Below are positions 1,945 to 55,166 of a DNA stretch of 64,000 nucleotides, in pieces. The notes beneath the pieces were generated by a model. That model was not told where the DNA came from, did no database searches, and was given only the letters and a program-made list of their open reading frames with translations. Source of the stretch: Puniceicoccales bacterium (GTDB taxonomy: Bacteria; Verrucomicrobiota; Verrucomicrobiia; Opitutales; LL51). The stretch lies in the NCBI GenBank assembly GCA_031284265.1, contig JAITAG010000039.1, positions 2,983 through 66,982 on the forward strand, read 5' to 3'. The position numbers and the translations under genes are program-made. The stretch's first letter is position 1, and the number at the start of each line of letters is the position of its first letter.

Positions 1945-2496
1945 TTGATGTGTTTTTTATTATCGATGTCCTTGTACAATATGAAGGCCATCACTTATAA
2001 AGTGTTGTTGCTAGTACCATTATCTTGTCTTGTTCTTCTTTTCGTATTTATTGGTGACGTTTGGTATGAACAAAAAATATTTGTAATCGTCGGAAACTTT
2101 TTGCAGATTATTATCCCATGCATGGGCTATTATATCAGTTTGGTCAAAAAAGATAAAGTGGGAATTAAACAATTTTTGTGTACTGCTTCGGCAACCGTAG
2201 GAATAACCTATGCCATAAAATGGATGACCTATTATATGGGTATCGGTATTCGCCCATCCGGGGAAACGAAATCTTTTCCTTCCGGACATACGTCCTGCTC
2301 GTTCCAAGGTGCATTTTTTTTACTCAGACGCTACGGTTGGAAATGGGGAGCTCCAATGCTTATACTCGCTGGCTCAACTGCCTATAGCCGCATCTATGGA
2401 TTGTATCACCACTGGCGCGATGTCATTGCTGGATTCTTTATCGCGCTTCTCGTCAGTAAGTTGTTTGTGACTCCCCTAAGGGCTTCTCGCCCTTAG
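1945..2496 (+). CDS. PAP2-family lipid phosphatase (PgpB/LpxE-like)
   Basis: Multi-TM ORF with PAP2 motifs 'RPSGE', 'PSGHTS' and 'SRIYGLYHHWRDV'. ATG at 1948 is a likely start. The last ~7 codons and the TAG stop lie inside repeat module B. Confidence 0.75.
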   Translation: MMCFLLSMSLYNMKAITYKVLLLVPLSCLVLLFVFIGDVWYEQKIFVIVGNFLQIIIPCMGYYISLVKKDKVGIKQFLCTASATVGITYAIKWMTYYMGIGIRPSGETKSFPSGHTSCSFQGAFFLLRRYGWKWGAPMLILAGSTAYSRIYGLYHHWRDVIAGFFIALLVSKLFVTPLRASRP

Positions 2497-2745
2497 AATC
2501 CCCGCCATGGGATCCATCCCCTGGACCTGGATTACGGACCTTCCACCGGACAATGCCCGGTGGGAGGTCCGCAGGGGGGGCCCGGAGGCCCCCCGCGGCT
2601 TCGCCGCGGGGCGGGCTGATGCCGCGCTGCGGCCCAGCCAGGCGAAAGTTTCGCCTGGCTGGGCCGCAAGACAAGGTCAAGGAGTTTGCGACTCCTTGCG
2701 GAAGTCCAGAGGGCATAGCCCTCTGATTTGCAAATTTCGCATTGC
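2476..2745 (+). repeat. GC-rich hairpin-module mosaic, array 1 (order B-A-F-G-C-D-E)
   Basis: Successive palindromes: CTAAGGGCttctcGCCCTTAG; CCATGGGATCCATCCCCTGG; GGACCTTCCACCGG..CCGGTGGGAGGTCC (2536-2570); CCCCGCGGCttcGCCGCGGGG; GGCCCAGCCAGGCG..CGCCTGGCTGGGCC (2631-2665); CAAGGAGTttgcgACTCCTTG; CAGAGGGCataGCCCTCTG. Confidence 0.9.
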
Positions 2746-2777
2746 TATTGGGAAATAGCATTCATGATTTTGTGCAG

Positions 2778-4052
2778 ATGATTTGGATCTATCGATTACT
2801 ATTTCTGCCGATTTTTATCATATTCTTGTTGAAAAATTTACCAAAAATATTCAAACGAGGAGGTTACGGCATTGATTTACGGCATCGGTTTGGATTTTTT
2901 CCGCGGCTACCGAAGATAGAAAAAAAACGCCTATGGATTCAGGCGGTAAGCATGGGAGAAGTGAATGCAATTGTCCAATTAATTGCATTATTAAGTGAGC
3001 GTTACGAAATCGTACTTACCTCAACGACACCAACGGCACGAAAAATTATCATCGAAAAATTAACGAAAAATGTCCTATTCCATGGTTATTTCCCATGGGA
3101 TTTTTGGTTATTCAGTTGGATAGCGTGGCGACGTATTTGTCCCGATGCAGCTATTCTCGTAGAAAGCGAGCTATGGCCAGAACATATTTGGCAGGCGAAG
3201 CGACGTAAAATTCCCGTTTTTTTGATCAATGCGCGTTTATCGAATTGCTCATTTCGACGTTACCAGAAGTTTCCTCGATTAGCTCATTGGATTTTTGAAA
3301 AAATCGATTTCATTATCGCTTCTTCCGAGCAGAATCTCGAAAGAATCGCCGCGTTTCGTGATAAAGTTATTAAATATTTTGGAAATATAAAATTCGATAT
3401 TCCAATACGATCGTTATCGCAGGAAACGCGAAAAAATCTCAAAAAAGAACTTGGATTTTCTGAAGATTCATTTGTGTTACTAGGATGTTCGACTTGGCCC
3501 GGCGAAGAAGCCATACTATTGAAAGCTTTTCGTAAAATAAAAGCAAGAAAAAGTGAGCATATGTCCAAAGATTATAATCTTTTAATCGTACCGCGTCACG
3601 CCGAACGCCGTAAAGAATTGGTTCACTGGTTACAAAGCGAAAATGTTTCGTTCTGGCAGCGTTCAAAAGGCATTGCGGAAGGTAAATTTGACGTTTGCTT
3701 GGCAGATACAACGGGAGAATTAGCATACTTAGTTCAAGTCGCTGATTTAGCCTATATCGGAAAAAGTTTGGCACCGAATGTTGGCGGTCAAAGTCCGTTG
3801 GATGCGGCGATGGCAGGTGTTCCTGTAATTTACGGCAATCGCATGACGAATTTTTGCGATATTTGTGCCCAGCTAGAACAAGAAAACGCAGCGGTTAGGA
3901 TAGAAAGTGAAAAAGATGTGATCAATACCGTCGCTGAATTGGTAGAAAATATCAAAATTCGGCAAATTTTATCGAAAAATATTAGCAATTGGTTTAAAAA
4001 AAATCAGGGTGCATCGACAAAAATTGCTAACTTTATTCGAAAAATAATATAA
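2778..4052 (+). CDS. waaA: 3-deoxy-D-manno-octulosonic acid (Kdo) transferase
   Basis: 'LWIQAVSMGEVNAI' matches the KdtA 'HAVSVGE' motif and the C-terminal glycosyltransferase region 'GGQSPLDAAMAGVPV'. The ORF opens at TTG 2742 inside the repeat, so ATG 2778 is preferred. Confidence 0.85.
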   Translation: MIWIYRLLFLPIFIIFLLKNLPKIFKRGGYGIDLRHRFGFFPRLPKIEKKRLWIQAVSMGEVNAIVQLIALLSERYEIVLTSTTPTARKIIIEKLTKNVLFHGYFPWDFWLFSWIAWRRICPDAAILVESELWPEHIWQAKRRKIPVFLINARLSNCSFRRYQKFPRLAHWIFEKIDFIIASSEQNLERIAAFRDKVIKYFGNIKFDIPIRSLSQETRKNLKKELGFSEDSFVLLGCSTWPGEEAILLKAFRKIKARKSEHMSKDYNLLIVPRHAERRKELVHWLQSENVSFWQRSKGIAEGKFDVCLADTTGELAYLVQVADLAYIGKSLAPNVGGQSPLDAAMAGVPVIYGNRMTNFCDICAQLEQENAAVRIESEKDVINTVAELVENIKIRQILSKNISNWFKKNQGASTKIANFIRKII

Positions 4053-4061
4053 TCTTGTAGG

Positions 4062-4617
4062 GTAACTGCCAGAAGGGTCCGCCCTATGAGCTTATCATGG
4101 GGCTCCGCCCTCTGGACTCCCGCAAGGAGTCGCAGACTTCTTGACCTCATTTTGCGGCCCAGACAGGCGAAAATTTCGCTTGTCTGGGCCGCAGAGGTAA
4201 AATTTATCTTTGCCGAAGCGCTGCGCGATGCGCAGCGCTTCGGCAAAAAAGTCAGCCCGCCCGCGGCGAAGCCGCGGGCGGGGCCATTGGGCCCCCTGCG
4301 GACCTCCCGCCGGGCATTATCCGGTGGGAGGTCCCGTAATCCAGGTCCAGGGGATGGATCCCCTGGCGGGGATCCTAAGGGTGAGGAGCCCTTAAGTAGA
4401 GCTTACCATGGGGCGCTGCCCCATGACCCCGCAAGGAGTCACGGATTCCTTGACCTCATTTTGCGGCCCAGACAGGCGAAAATTTCGCCTGTCTGGGCCG
4501 CAGAGGTAAAAGGCACTTCTGGCCTGCTCCCTGGGCGTTGTCCAGGGAGCAGGCCAGAAATCCCGATCCAGGGGATGGATCCCCTGGATCGGATCCTAAG
4601 GGCGAGGAGCCCTTAGA
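4062..4617 (-). repeat. GC-rich hairpin-module mosaic, array 2 (two tandem units, reverse orientation)
   Basis: Unit 1 runs E/K-D-C(4156-4190)-I-G-F-A-B. Unit 2 runs K-D-C(4465-4499)-H(4521-4555)-A-B. These are the same modules as array 1, reverse-complemented. Confidence 0.9.
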
Positions 4618-5445
4618 AATATCGCAACATGTGAAATATATTTGTAAAAGAATGTTTTCGATAACATGTAAAAAACTACCATTGACGGTCAACAGGGATG
4701 ATGACTTCGAAATGATCTTTATCATACGTTCTGCGACATGGATTGAAATTTTTCCATAAAAAATATTCCAAATTTTTTCCGTTATCGCTTTCAGAAGAAC
4801 GCGTTGAATATCTTTCGTGGACGCATTTTTTATTTCATCGTTGTCGGAGGATAATTTTTCTAGATTTCGGGACAGTTCTTCGAGTATGGAAAAAATTTCT
4901 AACACATGGAGAGGAGGGCAGTTAGGGGATATTTTTTGTAAAAAAACTTCCAACTGGTCGAGCCATTTCGCGAGTTCTGTAGATAGAACTACGACGAAAT
5001 TTTCGGGTAAACGGTGCAATGTGCAGCGGCTGGTAATCGTCGGCAAAAGAAAATTTTTGGAATGGGTCGTTAAAAATAAGGTTGTGTCGGCCGGTGGTTC
5101 TTCCAGTGTTTTGAGCAAGGCATTGGCCGCATTTTTGTTAAGTTGGTGCGCTTCGAAAATTACAAAAACTTTTTGTTTACTCGTGTTTGGTGTTTTTTGG
5201 ACGCGGTCGATGAGCTCTCGAATGGCATCAATTTTTATGACATTTATCTTCCCAATGGGCGAAAGAGTAAAAAAGTCAGGATGATTTTCCAAATGGTCTG
5301 TTTTTAAAATGTTCCGAGCACAACTCGTTACGTAAAATAAAGCGTCGGCCGTACTTTCCGTTTCAACAATAACGGCATGGGGTAACCGGTTTTCGGCAAT
5401 CATTTGAGCCGTTTGCTGGGTGTAGAAGGCGAGATCCATAGCCAT
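4456..5445 (-). CDS. holB: DNA polymerase III delta' subunit; C-terminal ~54 codons read through repeat array 2
   Basis: 'LLKTLEEPP' and 'ITSRCTLHRL' (sensor/SRC) motifs. The start abuts the tmk stop. The tail '...SKGSSPLGSDPGDPSPGSGFLA...RPRQAKFSPVWAAK' is encoded by modules B-A-H-C. Confidence 0.8.
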   Translation of the reverse strand: MAMDLAFYTQQTAQMIAENRLPHAVIVETESTADALFYVTSCARNILKTDHLENHPDFFTLSPIGKINVIKIDAIRELIDRVQKTPNTSKQKVFVIFEAHQLNKNAANALLKTLEEPPADTTLFLTTHSKNFLLPTITSRCTLHRLPENFVVVLSTELAKWLDQLEVFLQKISPNCPPLHVLEIFSILEELSRNLEKLSSDNDEIKNASTKDIQRVLLKAITEKIWNIFYGKISIHVAERMIKIISKSSSLLTVNGSFLHVIENILLQIYFTCCDISKGSSPLGSDPGDPSPGSGFLACSLDNAQGAGQKCLLPLRPRQAKFSPVWAAK

Positions 5446-7577: not shown

Positions 7578-7581
7578 ATTT

Positions 7582-7847
7582 CCCAAGGGCTGCGCGCCCT
7601 TGGATCCCCGCCAGGGGATCCATCCCCTGGACCTGGATTTACGGGCCTACCACCGGGCGTTGCCCGGTGGTAGGCCCGAAGGGGCCCTAAAGGCCCCGCC
7701 CGCGGCTTTGCCGCGGGCGGGGCAGGAAAATTATAAATTTTGACCCCTGCGGCCAAAGCATGCAAAGATTTCGCATGCTTTGGCCGTTAGAAGAGGTCAA
7801 GGAGTTCGTGACTCCTTGCGGGAGTCCAAATGGCAGAACCCTTTGGG
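7582..7847 (+). repeat. GC-rich hairpin-module mosaic, array 3 (B-A-F-G-C-D-E)
   Basis: CAAGGGCtgcgcGCCCTTG; CCAGGGGATCCATCCCCTGG; GGGCCTACCACCGG..CCGGTGGTAGGCCC; GCCCCGCCCGCGGCtttGCCGCGGGCGGGGC; GGCCAAAGCATGC..GCATGCTTTGGCC (7751-7785); CAAGGAGTtcgtgACTCCTTG. Confidence 0.9.
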
Positions 7848-8064
7848 TAACCCTTTTTCGAAGTCATGAAACAGAGCCCCGTAATGGTTGGTATTAATTG
7901 AAAAATTTTGACGTGCTCTCCCACTTTTTATCTTCTAGCTTTGAAAGGAAATGGATCGTTGTCAAATTTTTTTAGAAATGTTTTCCGAGAAATAATTTTT
8001 CGGAAAAATAAAAATTTTCTGCGTTTTTCCTTGACACAAATTACAGATTCTTAAAATTCTGAAA

Positions 8065-8894
8065 ATGGCATACAGGCATACAGGCATACAGGAAAAAGTA
8101 AAAGTAAGATCAAATCTTTCACTTTAGTTGAAATTGTCTTTACCATTTCCATCATCGGCATTTTACTGGCCATACTTTTGCCGGCGATGAGTGCCATAAA
8201 GTTGAGCGCACAGAAAGTAAGAGACGTCTCCAATCTCAAAAAAATCGCCGAAGCCTGGCGTGAGTATTCCATCAATCGTAGCTACGGAAAAATGCCTATA
8301 TCAGAAGAAAAATATGGTACACATTTTATACAGCTTTTGTCTGGTTGTGGTGAAAATTTTGACACGGGAGCGAAAGCGGGGCGTGTCGATGGCTGCATCT
8401 TGAATGATCCCTATGTTTATGTTTCTCCTGGCGATAAATATGCGTCACCAATACAAAATGAAACCATCGGGAGATTGACGCAGGATGGTGCCTGGTATTG
8501 GAGCTATCCATTAAAATTAGTTTCCAATGGACTGGGACCTGGATCTGAAATTTTTAGCTATTGTTTGGCCTGGGGTATCGATCCAAGTGCTTCCCTCGAT
8601 ACGACACCGCTAGGCTTTACCCGCGGCCTAAAAGAAAATGGCTACTGGGACGAAAAATATGGCCTCTATGGTTCAAAAGGTGGCTATGTGGTCTTCTGCG
8701 ATGGCCACACAACCTGGTTCGACGGCAGTAAACCGGCGAAATTTCTCAAATGGGACCGGTCGGGATATACCAATAATATCAGGGAAACGCTTGCCAAAGA
8801 TGTACTTATCACCTGTGGATATAACGTCAGAAATAATGTTAGAGGAACCGATAATTCACTCCTCGTAACCCACCATTTCGGCCTCGCAGAATGA
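8065..8894 (+). CDS. prepilin-type N-terminal cleavage/methylation-domain protein (pseudopilin-like, 'FCDGH' C-terminal motif); frame broken between ATG and leader motif
   Basis: The frame open from 8055 encodes '..KSKSKIKSFTLVEIVFTISIIGILLAILLP..' but has no ATG/GTG/TTG before TTG 8178. ATG 8065 is in another frame and stops at 8125. Deleting one 8-nt repeat unit would fuse ATG 8065 to the pilin frame. Confidence 0.7.
8068..8091 (+). repeat. octanucleotide tandem repeat (GCATACAG)x3 directly after ATG 8065
   Basis: Read directly as atg-GCATACAG-GCATACAG-GCATACAG-gaaaaag. Confidence 0.95.
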
Positions 8895-8906: not shown

Positions 8907-9272
8907 CTAAGGGCGGGGGCGACTTTCTTTGATTAGGACTATTTTTAGCCGAGTCGATATGCATCGCACATCGGCTCGGTAAATGGAAAATCTCAGTCAA
9001 GGGAAATATCTCCGGCCAATCCACGGGCATCGTCAGCGGATCGGCCGGGGAAGTCCAAGAAAAATAAAAGTTTACTCCGCACGGCGCGAAGCGCCGGGCG
9101 GGTGTGACTTTTGTTGCTTATTTTTGTTGCTTTTGAGGCCCAGCCGAGCGAAAATTTCGCTTCGGCTGGGCCTCAAAATGAGGTCAAGGAGTCCGTGACT
9201 CCTTGCGGGGTCACGGTGCGGAGCCCCGTGGCAAGCTTCCTTGCGGGAGTCCTGATGGCGGAGCCCTTTGGA
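8907..9272 (+). repeat. GC-rich hairpin-module mosaic, array 4 (partly degenerate: B-I-H-J-C-D-K-E)
   Basis: CCGCACGGCGCgaaGCGCCGGGCGG; TTTTGAGGCCCAGCCGAGCG..CGCTTCGGCTGGGCCTCAAAA (9137-9172 core); CAAGGAGTccgtgACTCCTTG; CACGGtGCggaGCcCCGTG. Confidence 0.8.
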
Positions 9273-9294
9273 CAGAAAACACCATGGTAAATTT

Positions 9295-27736: not shown

Positions 27737-28723
27737 ATGTTTGCTATGAAAACAAACATTAAAATTCGTCTATTGGTGGCGGCACTGGGAGGAAACGTAT
27801 TTTTCTATAGTGACGCTCGTGCTAGTGATTGGAATGGATTGGGTCCCTGTGAAGAAGTTCCGGTGGGCTTGGAAACGTTTGATTTTAGCGGGTGCGAAGC
27901 AAAGTATCCGGCTCCCTACCGGGGAATCGTACGCATTAGCCAATCTTCGGATCAAGGTCATGGAAAGTTACGGACGTCAACAATGATTTTACATCAACAT
28001 CCTGAGACGGGATCTTTTAGTCGCAGGCCTACGATAACCGGTACTCTAAGTCAATTGGATAGTTCGGATTTGCTACCCATTATGCAACAGGAAAGGGGGT
28101 TAGCACGGATAATACCCATTTTGGTCCAAAAGTATTTTTTCGATGCTTTACCGGCCTTTGTCGACCTAACGGTAACGGGATTCAGGCAGATAATTAGAAA
28201 TGGAAGCATAAGCGAATGTTCTCTGGAAGAGTACTTTACGTTTTCGTTAATTGAGCCCGATACGTTTCAATATGTTACCCGTGACCAGCGTCCTCCACGT
28301 GAATCCGTTGCCATTTACGGCTATGCCACCGATGCCGTTATGGGACGAGATGGCATTATTAACCGGGTAAAACGCAATATTATGGATGAAATTCTTATGA
28401 TTCTCCAATTCTTTATCATGCACAATATTCCCGATGAGTTAATAGCGCAGCTGGAAAATTATGTCGATCATGTCCTTGGGCAAATCGTTCCTGCGTTGAA
28501 ACAGGCTATGTTTGAGATTTTGCGGGACATTGTTGCCGAAATGGCTACGGGCTGTTGCAGCTGGTGTAAAAAGCTCAGCAAAGAGGACAAGAAAAACCTT
28601 ACCCGAGGCATATGCCACATGTTAGGCGGTGTGCTTGGTCGTATTTTTGGAGAGGGCTTCGAACTGGGGGCCGATGAATTAGCGAACGGAATTTGTGGCA
28701 TTATTGCCAATCAAAATGAATAG
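27737..28723 (+). CDS. orphan signal-peptide protein (no recognisable family)
   Basis: N-terminal 'IKIRLLVAALGGNVFFYSDARA', a Cys-rich C-terminus 'CCSWCKK...ICHMLGG...ICGII', and a 320-bp extremely AT-rich leader upstream. Confidence 0.55.
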   Translation: MFAMKTNIKIRLLVAALGGNVFFYSDARASDWNGLGPCEEVPVGLETFDFSGCEAKYPAPYRGIVRISQSSDQGHGKLRTSTMILHQHPETGSFSRRPTITGTLSQLDSSDLLPIMQQERGLARIIPILVQKYFFDALPAFVDLTVTGFRQIIRNGSISECSLEEYFTFSLIEPDTFQYVTRDQRPPRESVAIYGYATDAVMGRDGIINRVKRNIMDEILMILQFFIMHNIPDELIAQLENYVDHVLGQIVPALKQAMFEILRDIVAEMATGCCSWCKKLSKEDKKNLTRGICHMLGGVLGRIFGEGFELGADELANGICGIIANQNE

Positions 28724-28728
28724 GCAAC

Positions 28729-28873
28729 TGCCAGAGGGCTTCTCCGCCCTCTGGTCTCCTTCGCCTGACTGGACCGCAAGGGTAAAACCCCGCCCGGCGC
28801 GAAGCGCCGAGCGGGGTAAACTTTTTATTTCTTATTTTTCTTTGGCCGAGGCGATGAGCATCGCCTCGGCCAA
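28729..28873 (-). repeat. GC-rich hairpin-module mosaic, array 5 (E - C/D remnant - J - I)
   Basis: CCAGAGGGCttctccGCCCTCTGG; CCCCGCCCGGCGCgaaGCGCCGAGCGGGG; TTGGCCGAGGCGATgagcATCGCCTCGGCCAA. Confidence 0.85.
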
Positions 28874-28941
28874 AACTATCTTCTTCCAAGGTAGAAAGAT
28901 TTCAATTGCAAGTTTATATATATTTTTCATAATCAATTGCC

Positions 28942-29796: not shown

Positions 29797-30570
29797 ATGG
29801 AAAGTTTTAGAGAACGAAAAAGTTTTACACTGGTTGAATTAATGGCGGTAATTGCGATTCTGACGATTTTGATAGCCCTTACTTATCCTGCCGCTCAAGC
29901 CGTTATGGATCGTATCCACCGGGTAAAAGCAGCCAATCATTTGCGAACCATTGCCCTTGCCCATGTTCAGTTTATTACCGATTTCGGCCGCGCCATTACT
30001 TTTTCAGATGTAGAGAATATTTCCGGCAATAATACCTATAATGCCAATAACTTTGCCGCCGTACTGGCCAAATACGGCTACATTGAAGACGTTTCCGTCT
30101 GGGCTTGGGATTTTGATCATAAGGTCAAAGCCTATAAAAAGGATAGCTCCAAGACCTTCCCTTCCGAAATTTATAACCGGTCTACTGAAAAAACTCACAC
30201 CAATTTTAAAGGAGGAGTTTTTCCATTAAGCGTTGTTTGTGGCATCGTACAGTGCCCTAACTTTGATTACAAAACACTGCTCAAAGGAAAATACCCCGCC
30301 GCCTATAGCCGCGGGCTTAAATCCAATGGCTCTTGGATGGAATCTTCTTCCAATGTCAATGGCGGTGTTTTTGGAACGAAGGGTGGCCTTGTCGCCTACT
30401 ACGACGGATCCGTTGAGTGGTATACGAATACTGCTAATAAATTTATAAAATATTCCGACCAAACTAAAGTATCCAAAATTTGTGATGCCATACCCAATAG
30501 CCACACTGGCAGTTTTGTTGATTCTAATTTTTTAAATTGGGACGGTTTCAATGTCTGCCATAGTATTTGA
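29797..30570 (+). CDS. prepilin-type N-terminal cleavage/methylation-domain protein (paralog, 'YYDGSVEWY')
   Basis: 'RKSFTLVELMAVIAILTILIALTYP'. Shared blocks 'NLRTIALAH', 'FAAVLAKYGY..DVSVWAWDFD' and 'FPLSV' link it to 28942-29739. Confidence 0.85.
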   Translation: MESFRERKSFTLVELMAVIAILTILIALTYPAAQAVMDRIHRVKAANHLRTIALAHVQFITDFGRAITFSDVENISGNNTYNANNFAAVLAKYGYIEDVSVWAWDFDHKVKAYKKDSSKTFPSEIYNRSTEKTHTNFKGGVFPLSVVCGIVQCPNFDYKTLLKGKYPAAYSRGLKSNGSWMESSSNVNGGVFGTKGGLVAYYDGSVEWYTNTANKFIKYSDQTKVSKICDAIPNSHTGSFVDSNFLNWDGFNVCHSI

Positions 30571-30587: not shown

Positions 30588-30832
30588 CATGAGGCTCAGC
30601 CCCATACCCCACAAGGAGGTTACCCAGAGGGCTCCGCCCTCTGGACTCCCGCAAGGAGTCGCAGACTCCTTGACCTCTTTTAACGGCCAAACTATGCGAA
30701 AATTTCGCATAGTTTGGCCGTTAAGATTAAACCCAAGCCCGGCGCGCTTCGCATCGTGTGAGGGTAGTCCCCGAATCTCAGGTCCAGAAGATGGATCTCC
30801 TGGCTGGGATCCAAGAGTGAGCAGCCCTTAGG
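30588..30832 (-). repeat. GC-rich hairpin-module mosaic, array 6 (K-E-D-C-J-A-B)
   Basis: CCAGAGGGCtccGCCCTCTGG; CAAGGAGTcgcagACTCCTTG; GGCCAAACTATGCG..CGCATAGTTTGGCC (30685-30719). A degenerate A and B follow. The pheS stop codon lies in the terminal CCCTTAGG. Confidence 0.9.
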
Positions 30833-32619: not shown

Positions 32620-33653
32620 TCGACGCCTTTGAGTTTCACAGTAAAGAGTTTTTATGGCTATTCCTTCTTTTGCCCGTCGTTGCCTATATTTGTAAGCATT
32701 ACAAAAAACAGGCTACACTTTTCTTTCCCCATATCGAAACTTTAAAAAAAGCAATGGAGTTCCACCGTTCGAAAGCACAACATATTTTAAATGTTCTGCG
32801 TTTCTTAGCGCTCACCGCATTGATTTTTGCCCTAGCTCGCCCCCAAATTATCCACCGTTTTACGGAATCTCGTTCGAGCGGCATCGATATTATGCTTGCG
32901 GTGGACATTTCATCTTCAATGATGGGGCTTGACTTTCAAGAGCGGGATGAACGCAAAATAACGACGCGGTTGGATATTGCTAAACAGGTAACCAATGAAT
33001 TTATTCAAAATCGCCCCAATGATCGCATCGGCATGTGTGCCTTTGCGAGGGATGCTTATCTCGTCAGCCCCGTTACAATGAATCACAATTGGTTGGAAGA
33101 CAATTTGAAATGCTTACATGTCGGATTGGTCGAAGATGGGACGGCAATCGGAAATGCCCTTGCCATGTGCGCCAATCGCCTCAAAAATTCAGAATCTAAG
33201 ACGAAACTTATCGTCCTACTGACAGACGGCAGTAATACGGCAGGAAATATCGCTCCCCTCATGGCTACAGAAATGGCAGCGGCCCTAAATATTAAAATTT
33301 ACACCGTCGGGATCGGTAAAAAAGGGATCATCCCTTTTGCCTACCCTGACGAAAAGGGTAATGTTATGATAGATCCGTTCGGTCGGCCCATAGTCATTCA
33401 AGGACAAGCCGATCTCGATGAAACCCTACTCGAAACCATTGCCCAAAAAACGGAGGGACAATTTTTCCGCGCAGAAAATAAAAAACAACTGAGCGATATC
33501 TATACAACAATCGATCGGTTGGAAAAAACTGATGTAAAATTTAAACAGTTTGCCACCGTAAAAGACCTTTTTATTGGGTTTATCGGATGTGCATTGCTCC
33601 TCCTCCTCTTGGAGTGTTTTTTACGCCATTCAAAATTCCAGAAAATACCATGA
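32616..33653 (+). CDS. batA: VWA-domain membrane protein BatA
   Basis: MIDAS 'DIMLAVDISSSM', 'LLTDGSNTAG', and TM helices at both ends. Confidence 0.8.
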   Translation: MIDAFEFHSKEFLWLFLLLPVVAYICKHYKKQATLFFPHIETLKKAMEFHRSKAQHILNVLRFLALTALIFALARPQIIHRFTESRSSGIDIMLAVDISSSMMGLDFQERDERKITTRLDIAKQVTNEFIQNRPNDRIGMCAFARDAYLVSPVTMNHNWLEDNLKCLHVGLVEDGTAIGNALAMCANRLKNSESKTKLIVLLTDGSNTAGNIAPLMATEMAAALNIKIYTVGIGKKGIIPFAYPDEKGNVMIDPFGRPIVIQGQADLDETLLETIAQKTEGQFFRAENKKQLSDIYTTIDRLEKTDVKFKQFATVKDLFIGFIGCALLLLLLECFLRHSKFQKIP

Positions 33654-35689
33654 AATTTGGAAATACACTATTTTTGTTTCTATTGCCCCTATGGGTCACC
33701 TTGGGATTATCTATGGTCGTATGGGGACAAAGACGTCGATCGCGGCACCTCAAACAAATGGTTGCCCAACGCCTCTCCCCCCTATTGCTTTCGAACTACA
33801 GTACGGGGAGACAAAACTTAAAAAATTTGCTTTTCCTCGGCGCCATTGCATTCATTGGATTCGCCTTAGCCGCACCTAAATGGGGCCATAGACAAGAGGA
33901 ACGCTACGTGAAAGGCGTCGACCTACTGATTGCGGTAGATGTTTCCAAGAGTATGCTGGCAGAAGATATTAAGCCCAATCGCTTGGAACGGACAAAACTG
34001 ACCATTTTAGATCTTCTCAAATCTTTTAGCGGACATCGCGTCGGTCTCATCGCATTTGCTGGGAATTCATTTTTACAATGTCCCCTTACCCTTGATCACA
34101 ATGCCTTTGTTCAAAGCTTAAATGCCATTGATACGGATACAATCCCATTACCGGGTACGGCCATTAATGCGGCAATTGAATTAGCCGAAAAGGTCTATGA
34201 CCAAACGCAAAATCAAAAATTACTTTTTCTCTTTTCCGATGGTGAAGAACTGGCCGATAGCGCTATCGAAGGAGCTAGACAGGCAAAGAAACAAAATATT
34301 TGTATTTATACAATCGGCATCGGTTCGACGGAAGGCACTACGATTCTCATCGCGGATCCTACAACGGGAAAAATAAGTCCGCTATGTGACCGAAATGGAC
34401 AGGTGGTTAAAACTTCCCTCGATGAAAAGACGTTGCAAGAAGTTGCTGAAATGACCGATGGCCAATATTATCACCTATCCCCTGCAGCCCTATCACATTT
34501 ACAAAAAGATATACTCACTCGCTTTCCATTCATAAGAGAAACCGCCAATAAATATACCGAAAAAGTTTACCAGGAACGTTACCAATTATTTTTGTTTTTA
34601 GGATTTCTGCTGCTGCTGCTTGAAATGCTTATGGGCAATTATAAAAGACCGGAACAGTATTCCGTTTCCATTTATTACAAACTTTCGTCATTCCTTTTAG
34701 TTTTCCTATTCGCATTGAATAGCCTCTCTGCGAAGGAAAGCCAAGGGGAAATCTACTACAAAAATAAGGAATTTGAAAAGGCATTGGAATTTTATAATCA
34801 ACAATTGAAAAAAAAACCGGAAGATCGGGAGCTGCTTTACAATAAAGGAACGACTTGTCTCGCCCTAAAACAATACGAAGAGGCAATCGATTACCTCAAG
34901 AAATCGGCATCCGATGCACCCATAGCGCTACAGAAAAAAGCATTTTATAATTTAGGAAATACACTCTTTGAACAGGGACAGGGCTCACCTGAGCCTCAAA
35001 AAACATTGGAAAAATGGAAGGAAAGTTTGCGCCATTTTCAATCGACCGTAGATCTAGATGGACAATTTGAGGAAGCTAAGAAAAATACAAAATATGTCGA
35101 AGAGGCGATTAGAAAACTAGAGGAACAGCAAAGGTCTAAAAATCAGCAACAATCCAATGAGCCAAACAATCGACAGCAAAATTCCGACGATCGACAAAAC
35201 TCAGATCAGCAGAAGGACTCCAATGGGCAACAAAATTCCGACGATCAAAGAAATGAGGATAATCGGCAGCACTCCGATCAACAGCAAAACCCAGACGATC
35301 GACAAAACTCGGATCAACAGGACTCCAACGGACAACAAAATTCCGACGATCAAAGAAATGAAGATAATCGGCAGCACTCCAATCAACAGCAAAATCCAGA
35401 CGATCGACAAAACTCGGATCGGCAAAAGGACCCCAACGGGCAGCAAAATTCAGATGATCAAAGAAAATCTAAAAAGCAATCCCCAAATCAACGGCTTCCC
35501 GATAATCGCAACAAACCTAAAAATAGCGAATACCGGCAAAGTACGGCCCCAGATATATCGCAAGATCAAAAAATGTCCACCAGTGATGCCCTCCAAATAC
35601 TTGATGCTTTAGAAAATGAAGAAAAAAAATTGCTTTTAGAAAAGACTTATGGTAACATTAGAAACCGCAATCCTGAAAAATTTTGGTAA
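33650..35689 (+). CDS. batB: BatB-like VWA protein fused to a TPR (BatC-like) region and a Q/N/D-rich repeat tail
   Basis: ATGA overlap with batA. 'DLLIAVDVSKSM' and 'LFSDGEE'. TPR-like 'GEIYYKNKEFEKALEFYNQQLKK..'. The tail is a (DDRQNSDQQKDSNGQQNSDDQRNEDNRQHSDQQQNP) repeat. Confidence 0.75.
   Translation: MKFGNTLFLFLLPLWVTLGLSMVVWGQRRRSRHLKQMVAQRLSPLLLSNYSTGRQNLKNLLFLGAIAFIGFALAAPKWGHRQEERYVKGVDLLIAVDVSKSMLAEDIKPNRLERTKLTILDLLKSFSGHRVGLIAFAGNSFLQCPLTLDHNAFVQSLNAIDTDTIPLPGTAINAAIELAEKVYDQTQNQKLLFLFSDGEELADSAIEGARQAKKQNICIYTIGIGSTEGTTILIADPTTGKISPLCDRNGQVVKTSLDEKTLQEVAEMTDGQYYHLSPAALSHLQKDILTRFPFIRETANKYTEKVYQERYQLFLFLGFLLLLLEMLMGNYKRPEQYSVSIYYKLSSFLLVFLFALNSLSAKESQGEIYYKNKEFEKALEFYNQQLKKKPEDRELLYNKGTTCLALKQYEEAIDYLKKSASDAPIALQKKAFYNLGNTLFEQGQGSPEPQKTLEKWKESLRHFQSTVDLDGQFEEAKKNTKYVEEAIRKLEEQQRSKNQQQSNEPNNRQQNSDDRQNSDQQKDSNGQQNSDDQRNEDNRQHSDQQQNPDDRQNSDQQDSNGQQNSDDQRNEDNRQHSNQQQNPDDRQNSDRQKDPNGQQNSDDQRKSKKQSPNQRLPDNRNKPKNSEYRQSTAPDISQDQKMSTSDALQILDALENEEKKLLLEKTYGNIRNRNPEKFW
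35186..35470 (+). repeat. 108/105-bp in-frame tandem repeat (~2.7 copies) inside the batB-like gene
   Basis: Units start at 35186, 35294 and 35399 (GACGATCGACAAAACTC...). The second unit lacks one codon. Confidence 0.9.
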
Positions 35690-38067: not shown

Positions 38068-38823
38068 GTGTTAAGAGTTTTTCATCCAGGAATCCCAAAA
38101 ACGGGATCCGTCATCCATTTGGATCGGGAGGAAGCACATCATTTGTTCCACGTCTTGCGTGCAAGAAAAGATGAAAAAATTATCGTCCTCAATGGATATG
38201 GGTACTACGCCGAAGGTCATATCCTTAATGGCACAACCCAAGAAGTTATAATTGATAGTGTTCATTTTGCAGAAAGTAGTAAAATTACGCTATGCTCCGC
38301 TCTTTTGAAAAATAAAGCTATGGACTTTCTCATTCGCGAAGCAACGGCAATCGGTGTCGCAGGCATTATTCCTTTATATACTCAAAATTCGGAGGTCAAA
38401 ATTCAAAATGTCTCCGAAAAACAAATGCATTGGCACCGTATCGCTCGAGAAGCCTGTAAGCAATCAGGCAATCCGTACCTTCCTACCATCGAAATACCTC
38501 GAAAATTGAAAGATTTTCAATTCTCCGTGCCGACGTTTGTCGCCGCACTTCGAAAAGATGCAAAAAATATCTTTCACTACCAATCGGAAGTTAAAAATAA
38601 TCCCGTTGCCATTTTGATAGGGCCAGAAGGTGACTTTTCCGAACAGGAATATCAATATTTCATTCAAAATAATTTTCATTTTATTTATTTAGGAAAACAT
38701 ATCCTCCGCGCTGAAACCGCGGCACTCTATCTATTGAGCGTCATTGACCACATTTGCCTAAGGACGCGCGCCCCTAAATCCCCGCCAGGAGATCCATCCC
38801 CTGGACTTGGATTTCCGGCCTGA
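38068..38823 (+). CDS. rsmE: 16S rRNA (uracil1498-N3)-methyltransferase; last ~20 codons encoded by repeat array 7
   Basis: 'EEAHHLFHVLRARKDEKIIVLNGYG' and 'ILIGPEGDFSEQE'. The tail '..RTRAPKSPPGDPSPGLGFPA*' reads modules B-A, with the TGA stop in module H. Confidence 0.8.
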   Translation: MLRVFHPGIPKTGSVIHLDREEAHHLFHVLRARKDEKIIVLNGYGYYAEGHILNGTTQEVIIDSVHFAESSKITLCSALLKNKAMDFLIREATAIGVAGIIPLYTQNSEVKIQNVSEKQMHWHRIAREACKQSGNPYLPTIEIPRKLKDFQFSVPTFVAALRKDAKNIFHYQSEVKNNPVAILIGPEGDFSEQEYQYFIQNNFHFIYLGKHILRAETAALYLLSVIDHICLRTRAPKSPPGDPSPGLGFPA

Positions 38824-38940
38824 GCCCAGCGGACATTGTCCGGGGCTCAGGCCGGAAGGATCCAAATGTCTGTCATTTTACCCCAGCCCGGCGAGAATCA
38901 TTCGCCTGGTTAGAGGCCGCAAAACGAGGTCAAGGAGTCT
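38757..38940 (+). repeat. GC-rich hairpin-module mosaic, array 7 (B-A-H-C-D, D truncated)
   Basis: CCAGGAGATCCATCCCCTGG; CCGGCCTGAGCCC..GGGCTCAGGCCGG (38815-38855); a degenerate C; GGTCAAGGAGTC ends at the mcsB stop. Confidence 0.85.
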
Positions 38941-41310: not shown

Positions 41311-41364
41311 TCAGTCCAGGGATGGATCCCCTGGCGAGGATTCTAAGAGCGGAGAGCCCTTAGA
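41311..41364 (-). repeat. GC-rich hairpin-module mosaic, array 8 (A-B only)
   Basis: CCAGGGATGGATCCCCTGG followed by CTAAGAGCggagaGCCCTTAG. Confidence 0.85.
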
Positions 41365-41402: not shown

Positions 41403-42185
41403 TCAAATACAGGAGTAGCTAATACCGGCCGCATCGTTGGGGTTGACTACGGTAATATCAAATCTTTGCAGTATATTTTCGCCGAAAAGCGTTTCTAAAA
41501 GTCGCGAATCATTGCAATCGCGACTCAAATGCGCTAAAAAAATTTTCTGCCATTCCGCATCCGCCGCATTTACGACTAGATCGAACGCCGATTCATTCGA
41601 TAAATGACCATAGCGACCGCGGATCCGATTTTTAATTGCTGGCGGACGCTTTTCATCATTTTCCAACATAATATTATCGTAATTGGCTTCTAAAATAAGG
41701 ATGTCTGACTTTTTTACACGCTCGCGAATATTTTGAGGAACATAGCCGAGATCCGTCATCCAACATAGACTTTTTCCGCCGTCGCGACTACGAAAGATGT
41801 AACCTACGGGTTCGATCGCATCGTGAGGAATCGGAAAAGTCTCAATCTTAAAGCCTTGATAGTGAATAGTTTCACCGGTTACAAAGTAATTCCAAGAAAA
41901 TGATTTTCCGAATTTACTATCGATTGCCACTGCCGTCGCCCGGTTTGCAAAACATTGAAAATGTACATGTTTAGCCAATCCACGAAAGCCCTGGGAATGA
42001 TCCAAATGTTCATGTGTTATAAAAATTGCTCCAATATCTTGGATCGTAATTCCGAATGTCGGTAGGCGCATCTCAATTTGCCGCCCCGTCAAACCGACAT
42101 CGATCAAAAAATTTCCCGTCGTCGATTTTACTAATAAACAATTCCCCTGACTACTGCTTCCCAAAAAGTGACAACTTGTGATCAC
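41403..42185 (-). CDS. MBL-fold metallo-hydrolase
   Basis: 'FITHEHLDHSQG' (HxHxDH) and a typical beta-lactamase-fold N-terminus 'GSSSQGNCLLV'. Confidence 0.8.
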   Translation of the reverse strand: MITSCHFLGSSSQGNCLLVKSTTGNFLIDVGLTGRQIEMRLPTFGITIQDIGAIFITHEHLDHSQGFRGLAKHVHFQCFANRATAVAIDSKFGKSFSWNYFVTGETIHYQGFKIETFPIPHDAIEPVGYIFRSRDGGKSLCWMTDLGYVPQNIRERVKKSDILILEANYDNIMLENDEKRPPAIKNRIRGRYGHLSNESAFDLVVNAADAEWQKIFLAHLSRDCNDSRLLETLFGENILQRFDITVVNPNDAAGISYSCI

Positions 42186-42226
42186 ATTTCAAGCTATGTA
42201 ACCCACAGAATTAAATCAATTAAAAA

Positions 42227-42283
42227 ATCCCCGCTAGGGGATGAATTCCCTGGCGGGGATTTTAAAGGTGAGGAGCCCTTAAG
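42227..42283 (-). repeat. GC-rich hairpin-module mosaic, array 9 (A-B only, in a divergent promoter region)
   Basis: ATCCCCGCtAGGGGATgaATtCCCTGGCGGGGAT followed by TTAAAGGtgaggagCCCTTAAG. Confidence 0.8.
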
Positions 42284-44207: not shown

Positions 44208-44561
44208 ATAAAGGCTCCTCGCCTTTATAATCCTCGCCAGAGAATCCATCTCCTGGACCTGGATTTTCCGGCCAGAGCCCCGCGCAACGCCGGGGGCTCT
44301 GGCCGGAAGAATCTGTGAAGCCCACTAGGACAACTTTTTGGCCGAGGCGATGCGCGCGATGCGCATAGCCTCGGCCAAGGAAGATAAAAGTTTAAACTAG
44401 CCCGGCGCAAAGCGCCGGGCTGGGCCGTAAGGAAAAATCCCAAAAAATAAAACTTTTGACCTTACGAAAAGGTCAAGGAACCATGTTCCTTGCGGGAGTC
44501 CAGAGGGTGGAGCCCTTTGGGCAAGTCTCCTTGCGGGGCATGGGGCAGGAACCCCATGGGG
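44208..44561 (+). repeat. GC-rich hairpin-module mosaic, array 10 (near full length: B-A-H-L-I-J-D-E-K)
   Basis: CCGGCCAGAGCCCC..GGGGCTCTGGCCGG (44268-44306); spacer ATCTGTGAAGCCCACTAGGACAACTTT; TTGGCCGAGGC...GCCTCGGCCAA; CCCGGCGCaaaGCGCCGGG; CAAGGAAccatgTTCCTTG; CATGGGGCaggaaCCCCATG. Confidence 0.9.
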
Positions 44562-44566
44562 CAATC

Positions 44567-46366: not shown

Positions 46367-47554
46367 GTGTTATATCCCCATTTTAAATTTGAGATTACCC
46401 ATCGCGATGGATTAACGAAGGCGCGTTGTGGCCTATTGACGACACCCCATGGCGTTTTAGAAACACCAGCCTTTGTATTCTGTGCGACAAAGGGGGCGAT
46501 GAAATCGGTTACGATGCAGCAAATGGAAGAGGCCGGTGCAGAAATCATTTTATCCAATACCTATCACCTCCTCCTACAACCCGGTCCCAATCGCATCGCC
46601 ACACTCGGTGGACTTCATAAAATGCTACATTGGAATCGCCCAATGCTGACCGATTCCGGTGGATTTCAAATTTTTAGCCTCGGCCACGGTGGCATAACCA
46701 ACGAGATTAAGGGCAAACGCAATTGTATTATCCCCAAAACATTGCTCAATATCGACGAAATGGGAGCTCGTTTTCGCTCCTATGTCGATGGCCGCATATA
46801 CGATTTAATTCCGGAAAAATCCATTGAAGCTCAACAAAAATTAGGTGCAGATCTCATCCTTGTCTTGGATGAGTGTACGCCATTTCATAGTTCCAAACAA
46901 TATACAGAATGTTCCATGGAACGTAGCCATCGTTGGGCACTGCGCAGCTTTAACCAATTTGTCCAAAACAATGATCACCGCCAGGCACTTTATGGCATTG
47001 TTCAAGGTGGGATTTATGAGGATTTGCGCAAACGTAGCGGAAATTTTGTCGCTGAACAGGATTTTTTCGGGCAAGCTATAGGGGGGAGTTTGGGCGGAAA
47101 TAGGACACAAATGCACGATATTGTTGCCGTGACTTGCCAGCATATTCGTGAAGACCGGCCTACCCATTTACTGGGGATTGGTGGAATTTTTGACATTTGG
47201 AATGGCATTGCGAATGGAGTTGATACTTTTGATTGCGTCCATCCAACACGGTTAGCGCGGCACGGCGGCGCTCTGGTTTATCCAGAAAAAAACAATGGGA
47301 AAGAGTTTTTTAATCTTAAAAATGCGCGTTTTGCAGATGATTCGGAACCTATTGATCAAAATTGTTCATGTTATTGTTGCCAAAATTTTTCTCGCGCCTA
47401 TATTCATTATCTCTTTAAGGCGCATGAAATGCTCAGCGGGCAACTCTTAACGATCCATAACGTGGTATTCATGGTGCGTCTAGCAAGGGAAATTCGAAAT
47501 TTAATTAAGGATGGGTGTTTTAAAAAAGTGGTACATTTTTGTGGAAGATCCTAG
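46367..47554 (+). CDS. tgt: queuine tRNA-ribosyltransferase
   Basis: 'TDSGGFQIFSL', 'VLDECT' and the zinc site 'CSCYCCQNFSRAYIHYL'. GTG start. Confidence 0.9.
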   Translation: MLYPHFKFEITHRDGLTKARCGLLTTPHGVLETPAFVFCATKGAMKSVTMQQMEEAGAEIILSNTYHLLLQPGPNRIATLGGLHKMLHWNRPMLTDSGGFQIFSLGHGGITNEIKGKRNCIIPKTLLNIDEMGARFRSYVDGRIYDLIPEKSIEAQQKLGADLILVLDECTPFHSSKQYTECSMERSHRWALRSFNQFVQNNDHRQALYGIVQGGIYEDLRKRSGNFVAEQDFFGQAIGGSLGGNRTQMHDIVAVTCQHIREDRPTHLLGIGGIFDIWNGIANGVDTFDCVHPTRLARHGGALVYPEKNNGKEFFNLKNARFADDSEPIDQNCSCYCCQNFSRAYIHYLFKAHEMLSGQLLTIHNVVFMVRLAREIRNLIKDGCFKKVVHFCGRS

Positions 47555-48305
47555 ACTTAGGAAGGTCTGGAAACAGTTACGTTTGAAGCTAGCTGAAAGC
47601 TTCTCGTTTTTTCGTGTATTGTTAAGAGCTCGGCTCTTTCGCTGCATCGATTACTGCGGTGTTATTTTTAAATTTTATGTCAGAAACCGCAATTTTGCAC
47701 GGATAGACCTCGCCATCAGGGGTGAATATTGGCTGAATTCTCCATTCACAATTAGTAAACGTTATTTGCAACTTAAAGTAGAACCCGATGTGTATCAGTA
47801 CGGCGAAACGCCCCTGTTAACTATCGAAAAAATAGCCAAACAAATCCATACTACGGAACAGGATTGCATTTTCGAACTCGGCTGCGGAACGGGACGCTGC
47901 GCGTTTTGGCTTGCCTATTTTACGAAATGTCGCATCGTCGGTATTGAACAAATTCCTGATTTTGTTGATTTTTCTAATCAACTTGTCGAAAAAGATAGTT
48001 TTTTAGAAGGAAAGATTAATTTCATTCGGAACGATTTTCTCTCGACTGATCTCAATCCAGCAACGATCATCTATTGTTATGGAACTAAATTGACGAATGC
48101 ACAGATCGAGGCATTAATTCTTAATCTCGGTAAAACACAACCCGGAACAATCGTGATTACGGTTAGCTATTCCCTCAATGAAATCATTTCTACGAGTGAA
48201 AATCAGGCCGTTTTAGATAAATATTTCCCCATTATTTCAAAATTTGATGCCGAATTTTTCTGGGGGAAAACTACCGTATTTATTCAGAAAGTTCCATCCA
48301 TTTAA
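47511..48305 (+). CDS. class I SAM-dependent methyltransferase
   Basis: Motif I 'IFELGCGTGRCAFWLA'. It overlaps the tgt 3' end by 44 nt, and no later Met is available upstream of motif I. Confidence 0.65.
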   Translation: MGVLKKWYIFVEDPRLRKVWKQLRLKLAESFSFFRVLLRARLFRCIDYCGVIFKFYVRNRNFARIDLAIRGEYWLNSPFTISKRYLQLKVEPDVYQYGETPLLTIEKIAKQIHTTEQDCIFELGCGTGRCAFWLAYFTKCRIVGIEQIPDFVDFSNQLVEKDSFLEGKINFIRNDFLSTDLNPATIIYCYGTKLTNAQIEALILNLGKTQPGTIVITVSYSLNEIISTSENQAVLDKYFPIISKFDAEFFWGKTTVFIQKVPSI

Positions 48306-48310
48306 GATTG

Positions 48311-48602
48311 CCAAAGGGCTCCGCCCTCTGGACTCCCGCAAGGAGTCGTAGACTCCTTGACCTCCTTTTGCGGCCCAGCCCGGCGAAGTTTTCGCCAGGC
48401 TGGGCCGCAGGGGTAAACTTTTTTATCTTTTATTTTCCTTGGCCGAGGCTCATCGCGTATCGCCTCGGCCAAAAAGTTGTCCTAGTGGGCCTCAGATCCT
48501 TTTTCGGCCTGAGCCCTGGGCGTTTGCGGGGCTCAGGCCGAAAATCCAGGTCCAGGGGATGGATCCCTTGGCGGGGATTCTAAGGATACGTAGTCCTTAA
48601 GG
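48311..48602 (-). repeat. GC-rich hairpin-module mosaic, array 11 (near full length, reverse: E-D-C-I-L-H-A-B)
   Basis: CAAAGGGCtccGCCCTCTG; CAAGGAGTcgtagACTCCTTG; GGCCCAGCCCGGCG..CGCCAGGCTGGGCC (48372-48406); TTGGCCGAGGC..GCCTCGGCCAA; AAAGTTGTCCTAGTGGGCCTCAGAT; CGGCCTGAGCCC..GGGCTCAGGCCG (48505-48540); CCAGGGGATGGATCCCTTGG; CTAAGGAtacgtaGTCCTTAAG. Confidence 0.9.
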
Positions 48603-50520: not shown

Positions 50521-50917
50521 AATTTAAAATTTAAAAATATGATCGATTCTATAATTTATGATAAAAACTTTTCATTATATCTTCGTCTTTTTAAATTCAT
50601 AAGTCATGTCAATACCCAAGATATATAAAATCTTCCCCGCAATATTGGAGTCTTATCGTGTAAAACTATTTTTGCTGTATTTACATGTCATTCATAATTT
50701 ATCGAAAGCAATTACTTGTATCATAGTCTTCCACGCATGGGTTAGCTTATGAAATAAACATTCATTAGACCATTTAGAGAAAAGGCATAATATTTCAATC
50801 CATGGCTTTTAAGCCATAGAATAGTAAATTGAGTATCCCAATTGTTACGACAAATTCAACAGTGGGTGTTGAGGTATCTTACTACTCGGAATGATAAATA
50901 TTTAATTTTTTTCATTC

Positions 50918-51014
50918 GGAGCCGGGGATGAGATTCGAACTCACGACCCACGCATTACGAATGCGTTGCTCTACCAGCTGAGCTACCCCGGCAAAATTTA
51001 TCGGAATTTATATT
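50918..51014 (-). repeat. 97-bp perfect direct repeat, copy 1 (entire tRNA-Thr-CGT plus 22 nt of its 5' flank)
   Basis: Identical base for base to 53641-53737 (GGAGCCGGGGATGAG...GGCAAAATTTATCGGAATTTATATT). Confidence 0.95.
50920..50992 (-). tRNA. tRNA-Thr (CGT), copy 1
   Basis: The reverse complement folds with acceptor GCCGGGG/CCCCGGC, anticodon arm ACGCA-TTCGTAA-TGCGT and T-arm GTGAG-TTCGAAT-CTCAT. CCA is not encoded. Confidence 0.9.
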
Positions 51015-54971: not shown

Positions 54972-55166
54972 AGTCAGGTGAAGAATTCGCCTGACTGGGC
55001 CGCAGAGGTAAGAACTTTTATTTTTCTTGGCCGAGGCTTTGCCACAGGCGGGGCCTCCGGACCATGTTCTGGCCTTGTCCCCGGGCGTTACCCAAGGACA
55101 AGGCCAGAACCCCAGGTCCAGGGGATGGATCCTCTGGCGGGGATCCAAGGGCGAGAAGCCCTTGGG
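54972..55166 (-). repeat. GC-rich hairpin-module mosaic, array 12 (C-I-H-A-B, partly degenerate)
   Basis: GTCAGGtGaagaattCGCCTGAC; TTGGCCGAGGC...; GGCCTTGTCC..GGACAAGGCC (55071-55105); CCAGGGGATGGATCCTCTGG; CCAAGGGCgagaaGCCCTTGG. Confidence 0.85.

Follow-up and report, generated by a model that had tools for sequence, protein, structure and literature searches.

Mobile repeats that reshape gene ends are already known in other intracellular bacteria. In the direct precedent, Coxiella burnetii, QMITE1 and QMITE2 overlap the 3' ends of functional genes by 1–50 bp; an indel joins enhC to a QMITE2 copy, adding 33 residues, and another strain has a stop codon just before the element (PMC5896051). 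Here we analyze a GC-rich composite repeat in a 64,000-nucleotide (nt) stretch of a Puniceicoccales bacterium (assembly GCA_031284265.1, contig JAITAG010000039.1, positions 2,983 to 66,982; hereafter the window) and in six related termite-gut metagenome-assembled genomes (MAGs; Pcl387_bin18, Cc175_bin33, Gsp477_bin70, Ct408_bin149, Nc350_bin186, and Po218_bin25). As a preliminary description of the window had proposed, the terminal hairpin of the repeat, module B, provides the TAA or TAG that stops many genes, both in the window genome and in the six MAGs.

Like the Coxiella QMITEs, the Puniceicoccales repeat is composed of small non-coding hairpins in a probably intracellular host, and the enhC case parallels holB, which differs in the same manner between the window and a related locus (L002). 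The QMITEs, likened here by their description, occur in another phylum, each as a single element whose inverted and direct terminal repeats are defined, whereas the Puniceicoccales unit comprises about eight different hairpins, is often arranged in tandem, and has optional modules and no defined duplication. Repetitive extragenic palindromic (REP) sequences and bacterial interspersed mosaic elements (BIMEs) of enterobacteria and pseudomonads are likewise mosaics of extragenic GC-rich palindromes, concentrated 3' of genes and in convergent intergenic regions, frequently at a very short distance from stop codons, with genome-specific sequences and concerted evolution. In architecture, the repeat comes nearest to the BIMEs. 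However, BIMEs alternate the orientation of their REPs, while the Puniceicoccales units run head to tail with eight distinct modules, and REPs are not known for a TAA and TAG built into the tip. [quoted passage not shown] Their internal architecture is unlike that of the Puniceicoccales unit, in which a TA duplication was not demonstrated. The repeat combines some traits of a MITE (short, less than about 500 bp, non-coding, multi-copy, dispersed, and polymorphic) with some of REPs and BIMEs (extragenic imperfect palindromes, mosaic structure, and 3'-end bias).

The palindromic repeats of Rickettsia termed RPEs (Rickettsia palindromic elements) are inserted in frame inside open reading frames (ORFs), with the host protein continuing beyond them (PMC10969869). 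The two systems are alike in that palindromic repeats of an AT-rich intracellular bacterium form part of annotated proteins. They differ in that the Puniceicoccales overlaps are all C-terminal, with the ORF ending within the repeat. The in-frame invasion of the rickettsial type that the preliminary description had offered as one option is thus not borne out: neither in the window nor in the related loci does a host ORF resume after an internal insertion. The Puniceicoccales host also resembles Rickettsia in encoding a TLC ATP/ADP transporter (window 10945-12468, minus strand; PF03219, E = 1.7e-178). This transporter is a hallmark of obligate intracellular bacteria, and its presence suggests an intracellular lifestyle; the MAG therefore probably represents an endosymbiont, perhaps of termite-gut protists. 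The window has a GC content of 38–48% and carries ordinary housekeeping genes.

Gene ends formed by the composite repeat

The 13 arrays of the window stand out as GC-rich islands that total about 3.2 kb, or approximately 5% of its length. Alignment of 11 copies defines a composite unit of 230–320 nt, a fixed chain of about eight different GC-rich hairpins whose order is the same in all aligned copies:

M1, terminal module of the A end: CCAGAGGG or a CATGGGG hairpin
M2: CAAGGAGTCnnnGACTCCTTG
M3: long hairpin, TGCGGCCCAGCCAGGCGAAA/TTTCGCCTGGCTGGGCCGCA
M4 and M5: optional modules
M6: long hairpin with variable stems
M7: CCAGGGGATGGATCCCCTGG
M8, the module B of the preliminary description: terminal hairpin of the B end, CTAAGGG-loop-CCCTTAG

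M1 approximates the reverse complement of B (GGGCTCC-CGCCCT core), sharing about 16–17 of 21 positions; each is a hairpin in its own right, and the outer boundary of the element is variable. Units occur singly, in truncated form (M7 and B only), or in head-to-tail tandem with a period of about 220–310 nt and without alternating orientation, as in array 2 and L041. B carries TAA and TAG on both strands and closes two of the three reading frames. Since the internal B copies of tandem arrays carry the same TAA and TAG, these stops are intrinsic to B and not an adaptation to gene ends.

The six gene ends that had been ascribed to the repeat in the window (holB, rsmE, PAP2, pheS, ICMT-like, and gatA) are all confirmed. 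The tip TAA of B, within GCCTAAGGG, is the stop codon of pheS (30828-30830), whose product retains a full-length C-terminus matched by the Pfam profile to its last position. Similarly, the tip TAA within CCTTAAGG stops the ICMT/PEMT-like gene (48597-48599), while the gatA stop (62252-62254) is the TAA of a solitary B-like hairpin, CTAAGG-tgtat-CCTTAG (62237-62257), next to the A end of array 13. The PAP2 gene uses the TAG instead: its product ends PLRASRP inside the hairpin at 2476-2496, with B encoding the last six residues (LRASRP) and the stop.

In holB and rsmE, the ORF continues into the array. The holB junction involves the following features:

4596..4616: B of array 2, CTAAGGGCGAGGAGCCCTTAG, adjoining holB, with its TAA and TAG both out of frame
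4618..5445, minus strand: native part of holB, the core of DNA polymerase III delta', recognized by PF13177 and by orthologues
4456..4617, minus strand: HolB tail, encoded in array unit 2b by B, M7, M6, and half of M3

The holB ORF (4456..5445, minus strand; 329 residues) passes B in the sole stop-free frame (TCT AAG GGC ...) and acquires 53 residues (SKGSS...VWAAK) before the TGA at 4456-4458, in agreement with the roughly 54 proposed. AlphaFold2 with alignment A1 predicts a core folded to residue 278, followed by a tail (residues 279–329) without secondary structure and with a predicted local distance difference test score below 30. The best database match of HolB is a protein of 327 residues with 100% identity (locus tag LBB05_02525, on a 72.8-kb contig and labelled MAG: Puniceicoccales bacterium); the exact 329-residue form has no database record because the public gene call begins two codons later. 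The rsmE ORF (38068..38823, plus strand) enters B as CTA AGG ACG ..., crosses M7, and reaches a TGA early in M6, adding 21 residues, LRTRAPKSPPGDPSPGLGFPA, where about 20 had been estimated. It reads on because the TAG of B has decayed in array 7, with CCCCTAAA in place of CCCTTAG.

Comparison with orthologues, which the preliminary description had named as a check, locates the ancestral ends upstream of these tails. The 19 HolB orthologues examined (54–76% identity) end 3–15 residues after ...ILLQ.Y, near residue 271–284, a few of them with shorter tails that translate the same repeat. Twenty RsmE orthologues end 3–10 residues after ...LLSVIDHI; P0125 and P0129 end in the TAG frame of B (LRTAHP and LRGSAP, respectively), and P0128 bears a long repeat-like tail. 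An array-free PAP2 orthologue (L043) has a different end. These comparisons support the view that the HolB and RsmE tails are repeat-encoded and lineage-specific. Public records include the tails (HolB P0001, 327 residues; RsmE P0121, 251 residues), and annotated C-termini are in this respect repeat-derived, as had been anticipated.

The same junctions vary across the MAGs in spacer (about −2 to 90 nt), orientation, and presence. For holB, the TAA of B is the stop in L002 (...MYTARS) and L065, whereas read-through occurs in the window and, with a decayed array, in L003. The SpoU methylase gene keeps its own TAG 14 nt from the array in the window and its own TGA 7 nt from it in L063; the TAA of B is its stop in L097, and this TAA is mutated to TAG in L089. 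Spacers between the ABC-ATPase gene and the array measure about 5, 32, 0, and 90 nt across genomes. The kdtA gene faces an A end in the window and, in L065, a B end 1 nt past its native TAA, with no array in L017; the MBL-fold gene faces a B end in the window and an A end in L054. Presence/absence polymorphism between related genomes is observed at the kdtA, ICMT-like, tpiA, McsB-like, PAP2, and ogt sites, and array-free orthologues exist for the ICMT-like (L087), tpiA, McsB-like, and PAP2 genes. The C-termini of tip-stopped proteins differ by 1–3 residues from those of array-free orthologues.

The A end can also extend proteins. Ogt has 198 residues in L002 (7167-7763, followed by an array) versus 157 at the empty site in L003 (11100-11573), whose right border falls between TTTTTAA and TAAT. 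In L002, the native TGA, about 20 nt upstream of the array, is gone, and M1 and M2 encode 38 residues. Furthermore, a histidine kinase ORF (L004, 6270-7535) ends in PRGLRPLDSRKESQTP, encoded by M1 and M2, and stops at the TGA of CTCCTTGACC following M2. The A end therefore also possesses a frame-specific built-in stop.

Placement of the arrays

Of the 12 M7-anchored B ends in the window, 8 overlap the stop codon of an incoming gene or come within 22 nt of it. Only 6.3% of random intergenic points and orientations do so (p = 1e-7), in line with the enrichment of B at stops predicted earlier. Arrays occupy 7 of 11 convergent intergenic regions versus 6 of 49 others (Fisher p = 0.001), and the array-free convergent gaps of the window measure only 8–180 nt. 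A crude genome-wide neighbor call (3' versus 5', 111 versus 82) was set aside because its loose module matching is noisy, and the conclusions on placement rest on these curated window counts.

For a wider view of the junctions, the window was pooled with about 75 loci of the related MAGs (numbered L). For about 29 B ends in this set, the flank is AT-rich and the ORF running towards the module has at least 150 codons. The stop is the TAA of B in nine (eight gene families) and its TAG in two, and two read through; in the other 16, the gene keeps its own stop 4–45 nt upstream (median about 11 nt). Counted by gene family, the ORFs entering B use the TAA, TAG, and read-through frames in 8, 2, and 1 cases, respectively. 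A ends (M1/M2) are also found 0–25 nt past stops, at kdtA, tpiA, the methyltransferase gene 47511..48305, and in L010, L054, and L065. Abutting is therefore not specific to B; only stop donation is. Considering both the 16 retained stops and the abutting A ends, the strict targeting of stop codons that the preliminary description had entertained is not supported. At two gene ends, a 13-mer that includes a TAA, ATTTAAGATTGCC, directly precedes M1: it ends tpiA (44559-44571) and the unrelated methyltransferase gene (48298-48310). The A-side tip may thus also donate a stop and the last codon.

The arrays of the window are as follows:

Array 1, 2476..2732, minus strand: B (2476-2496) in the 3' end of the PAP2 gene; A end just upstream of kdtA
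Array 2, 4060..4618, plus strand: two head-to-tail units (about 4082-4396 and 4391-4617) between the convergent kdtA and holB; A end about 21 nt past the kdtA stop
Array 3, 7581..7850, minus strand: stop-less B variant, CCAAGGG..CCCTTGG, 5 nt past the own TAA of the ABC-ATPase gene
Array 4, 9009..9290, minus strand: without M7 and B, between the gene 8178..8894 and tRNA-Ser
Array 5, 28731..28874, plus strand: partial (M1-like, M5, and M4), 7 nt past the stop of the gene 27737..28723
Array 6, 30589..30831, plus strand: A end 18 nt past the stop of the gene 29797..30570; B end giving the pheS TAA
Array 7, 38758..38940, minus strand: B, M7, and the start of M6 (38758-38823) forming the RsmE tail; truncated A end touching the stop of the McsB-like kinase gene at 38941
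Array 8, 41316..41364, plus strand: M7 and B only, with B 38 nt from the stop of the MBL-fold gene (41403..42185, minus strand)
Array 9, 42224..42283, plus strand: M7 and B only, in a divergent promoter region
Array 10, 44208..44558, minus strand: decayed B 19 nt past the own TAA of the YdjC gene; A end 7 nt past the tpiA TAA, within the 13-mer
Array 11, 48311..48601, plus strand: A end 7 nt past the TAA of the methyltransferase gene 47511..48305; B end giving the TAA of the ICMT/PEMT-like gene
Array 12, 54972..55165, plus strand: in a divergent region, with a B variant without stops
Array 13, 61976..62257, minus strand: B 14 nt past the own TAG of the SpoU methylase gene; solitary B-like hairpin at the A side

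The stop-free stretches of the arrays create ORFs of 72–176 residues at nine places, which are likely annotated as hypothetical proteins; the one ORF tested had no Pfam match:

Array-derived ORFs, window positions 2453-2761, 4004-4246, 4086-4616, 28695-28961, 30589-30831, 44225-44443, 48308-48583, 55064-55324, and 61978-62196

Several candidate identities were considered for the arrays and discarded. An M4-like match at 14304 is a chance occurrence inside an SNF2-type helicase motif. An integron attC site or gene cassette does not fit, as the units are multi-hairpin, the flanking housekeeping genes lie on both strands, and the window contains no integrase. A CRISPR-like reading was ruled out by the gene content and the unit architecture. 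At the Rfam gathering score, the window yielded only tRNAs and no family for the arrays, and scanning 4040-4640 by E-value brought up nothing beyond miRNA-like hairpins below threshold. A literature search for the 20-mer of M7 or for repeats in Puniceicoccales returned nothing relevant. Given the negative Rfam, literature, and plasmid searches, the repeat family appears to be undescribed.

Apart from the arrays, the window contains other repeated sequences. A segment of about 122 nt is duplicated with 91% identity (50903-51024 and 53626-53747), each copy with an identical tRNA-Thr(CGT), and the two tRNA copies lie 2.7 kb apart on either side of a sodium:alanine symporter gene. A 54-nt (18-codon) tandem periodic repeat occurs at 35160-35474 within a BatB-like VWA/TPR gene (33587..35689). 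The window also encodes a paralogous protein family of about 240–265 residues (8178-8894, 28942-29739, and 29797-30570; also L094, L005, and L063), with tandem copies in related MAGs. One member has an N-terminal prepilin-type methylation motif, beyond which the paralogues have no Pfam match.

Copy turnover and an alphaproteobacterial relative

About 120 M7 matches were found across the examined loci of the window genome and the related MAGs. In 69 distinct copies of M6, 1103 Watson–Crick pairs face 80 mismatches (93% paired). The stems of M6 and M3 are genome-specific yet complementary, each MAG having its own variant and the window at least five. Between the window and L058, for instance, paired changes in M3 and M6 distinguish the orthologous arrays beside the ICMT-like gene, which still have a derived B variant in common. 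That complementarity is kept despite genome-specific stems suggests, at the sequence level, that the copies undergo ongoing amplification or gene conversion (concerted evolution) and are not static relics. G-T and A-C mismatches in 528 stems number 92 versus 73 (p = 0.16), and this lack of strand bias, a negative or uninformative outcome, gives no sign of selection on one transcript. On the B-to-A strand the GC stem of M5 precedes TTTTTT, and on the A-to-B strand M2 precedes ACCTCATTTT, both terminator-like; M5, M4, and M2 fit the intrinsic-terminator form on one strand each, whereas B and M7 do not. The enrichment of terminator-like sites is modest (34 versus 24.7 +/- 4.9 in shuffles).

A related element occurs in the GC-rich, 5-Mb MAG of an alphaproteobacterium (Hyphomicrobiaceae; CBDCWE010000003.1), a host from a different phylum than the Puniceicoccales. 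This hairpin-chain MITE, about 190 nt long, was found at L039, L042, L056, L070, L081, L082, and L088, and as far as our literature search could show it is undescribed. The 20-mer of M7 recurs in it unchanged and with the same linkers, alongside M1-like (CCAAAGGGC..GCCCTTTGG) and B-like (TTAAGGGC..GCCCTTAAC) modules. In contrast to the Puniceicoccales units, it is bounded by clear 24-nt inverted terminal repeats, CCTAAGGATCCTCTGATCAAGTC, which have CTAAG at their tips. In two of about seven copies (L042 and L082), the host gene terminates at the TAA or TAG of the tip. A TA duplication was not established, as the left tips read C-TA-AGG and the right flanks TC, GG, TG, and TA. A search of PLSDB plasmids with this unit gave no match. 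One might imagine the two elements as members of a cross-phylum family of mobile 3'-end cassettes in Verrucomicrobiota and Alphaproteobacteria, with tips that regenerate a stop (TA followed by A or G), insert exactly on stop codons without harm, and are retained by the host as a stop and terminator; we regard this as speculative and quite unlikely.

Origin of the junctions and their meaning

We interpret the arrays as a non-coding, selfish, MITE- or BIME-like composite repeat that colonized very short 3' spacers, its stop triplets easing overlap with gene ends, and assign this interpretation a probability of roughly 0.55. The repeat would have spread among termite-gut Puniceicoccales of one clade, AT-rich and probably intracellular. 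Its copies would persist mostly in the few bases 3' of genes, above all between convergent genes, because elsewhere coding or promoter sequence would be broken. A junction could arise by insertion at or just inside a gene end, or by later small deletions that remove the spacer and the native stop; either route would cost little because B supplies a stop. An ORF entering B in the first frame would end at the tip TAA with zero or one added residue, and in the second at the TAG, adding LRAxRP, so that in two of three frames the cost would not exceed a few residues. In the third frame, or where the B stop has decayed, the ORF would continue via M7 and M6 into a disordered tail rich in Gly, Pro, and Ser. 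We infer both the mobility of the repeat, from its polymorphism and copy number, and its mechanism. The tails would presumably be translated and be neutral or slightly harmful, and selection would remove most read-through junctions.

Several observations weigh against this interpretation. No transposase was found among the approximately 55 genes of the window, and no RAYT (Y1 transposase) either, the whole genomes not having been searched for transposases or scanned for RAYT. Nor was a conserved flanking tetranucleotide found, no test aimed at one having been made. A clean-boundary pair of empty and filled sites was not found, and no consistent target-site duplication is present across copies or at the empty and filled ogt sites. 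The 8:2:1 excess of the TAA frame over the expected 1:1:1 requires selection, or it could reflect targeting of TAA. Since the C-terminus of PheS is full-length, its junction is base-precise. Finally, orthologous sites retain their arrays in genomes whose proteins are only 65–84% identical, which could reflect function rather than mere tolerance.

The base-precise pheS junction and the TAA-frame excess lead to a rather unlikely alternative in which the repeat inserts specifically into a target of the TA, TAA, TTAA, or CTAG type, as do IS630/Tc1-mariner or IS5/PIF-type MITEs, with the tip and the duplicated TA regenerating TAA or TAG. A copy entering the TA of a native stop would leave the protein unchanged, and such copies would be preferentially retained. 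The tip TAA indeed occupies the native stop position without truncation in pheS and lies within 1–3 codons of it in the holB, SpoU, and ICMT-like genes; even so, the tip-stopped proteins remain 1–3 residues off their array-free orthologues. A TA- or TAA-containing target is possible in view of the 13-mer before M1 at two unrelated genes, the TTAAG at both borders of array 11, the border of the empty ogt site, and the C-TA-AGG tips and host stops of the alphaproteobacterial relative. However, the A-end flanks are heterogeneous and show no tip motif or target-site duplication, neither lineage has a consistent duplication, and more than half of the B junctions keep the gene's own stop at a distance that is not fixed. 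Targeting alone is also insufficient for the 3' bias, because TA sites are everywhere in an AT-rich genome. The strong preference for convergent regions and the maintenance of arrays with compensatory stem changes at orthologous gene ends of divergent genomes would instead suit an adaptive 3'-end cassette, whose hairpins are selected as bidirectional terminators, 3'-exonuclease barriers, or regulators of translation termination, and whose contact with the stop codon is functional. A hairpin inside the ribosome footprint of the stop codon could behave as E. coli REPs within 15 nt of a stop reportedly do (Liang and Deutscher 2015), and M5 and M2 resemble intrinsic terminators. We consider this explanation unlikely: B has no T-run, terminator-like sites are only modestly enriched, mismatches lack strand bias, array orientation flips between genomes, many orthologous sites are array-free, and partial or decayed copies are common.

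The tails might also be products of assembly or consensus error in the MAG, such as a 1-nt indel or a chimeric join at the boundary of unique and repeat sequence. The window belongs to a short-read MAG, one base sets the frame at B, and many contigs of the related MAGs (L004–L098) start or end within an array, with M7 at position 1–150 or in the last bases; the arrays evidently fragment short-read assemblies and account for the short contigs of these MAGs. Nevertheless, a separate Logan assembly of SRR14710909 (L001), a run that may also underlie the MAG, has the identical junction of holB with B and the identical tail, and similar tails occur elsewhere (HolB in L003, RsmE P0128, Ogt in L002, and the histidine kinase in L004), which makes such an artefact very improbable.

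Under the favored interpretation of a selfish composite repeat residing in 3' spacers, stop triplets at the tip of the element lower the cost of living at a gene end. Several annotated C-termini (HolB, RsmE, and PAP2) and hypothetical proteins of 72–176 residues are repeat-derived, and annotation pipelines and family alignments inherit them. After Rickettsia and Coxiella, this is another independent case of an AT-rich, probably intracellular bacterium in which GC-rich palindromes remodel gene termini. The module held in common with the alphaproteobacterial element hints at a wider undescribed family, for which the transposase and the target rule could be worked out.

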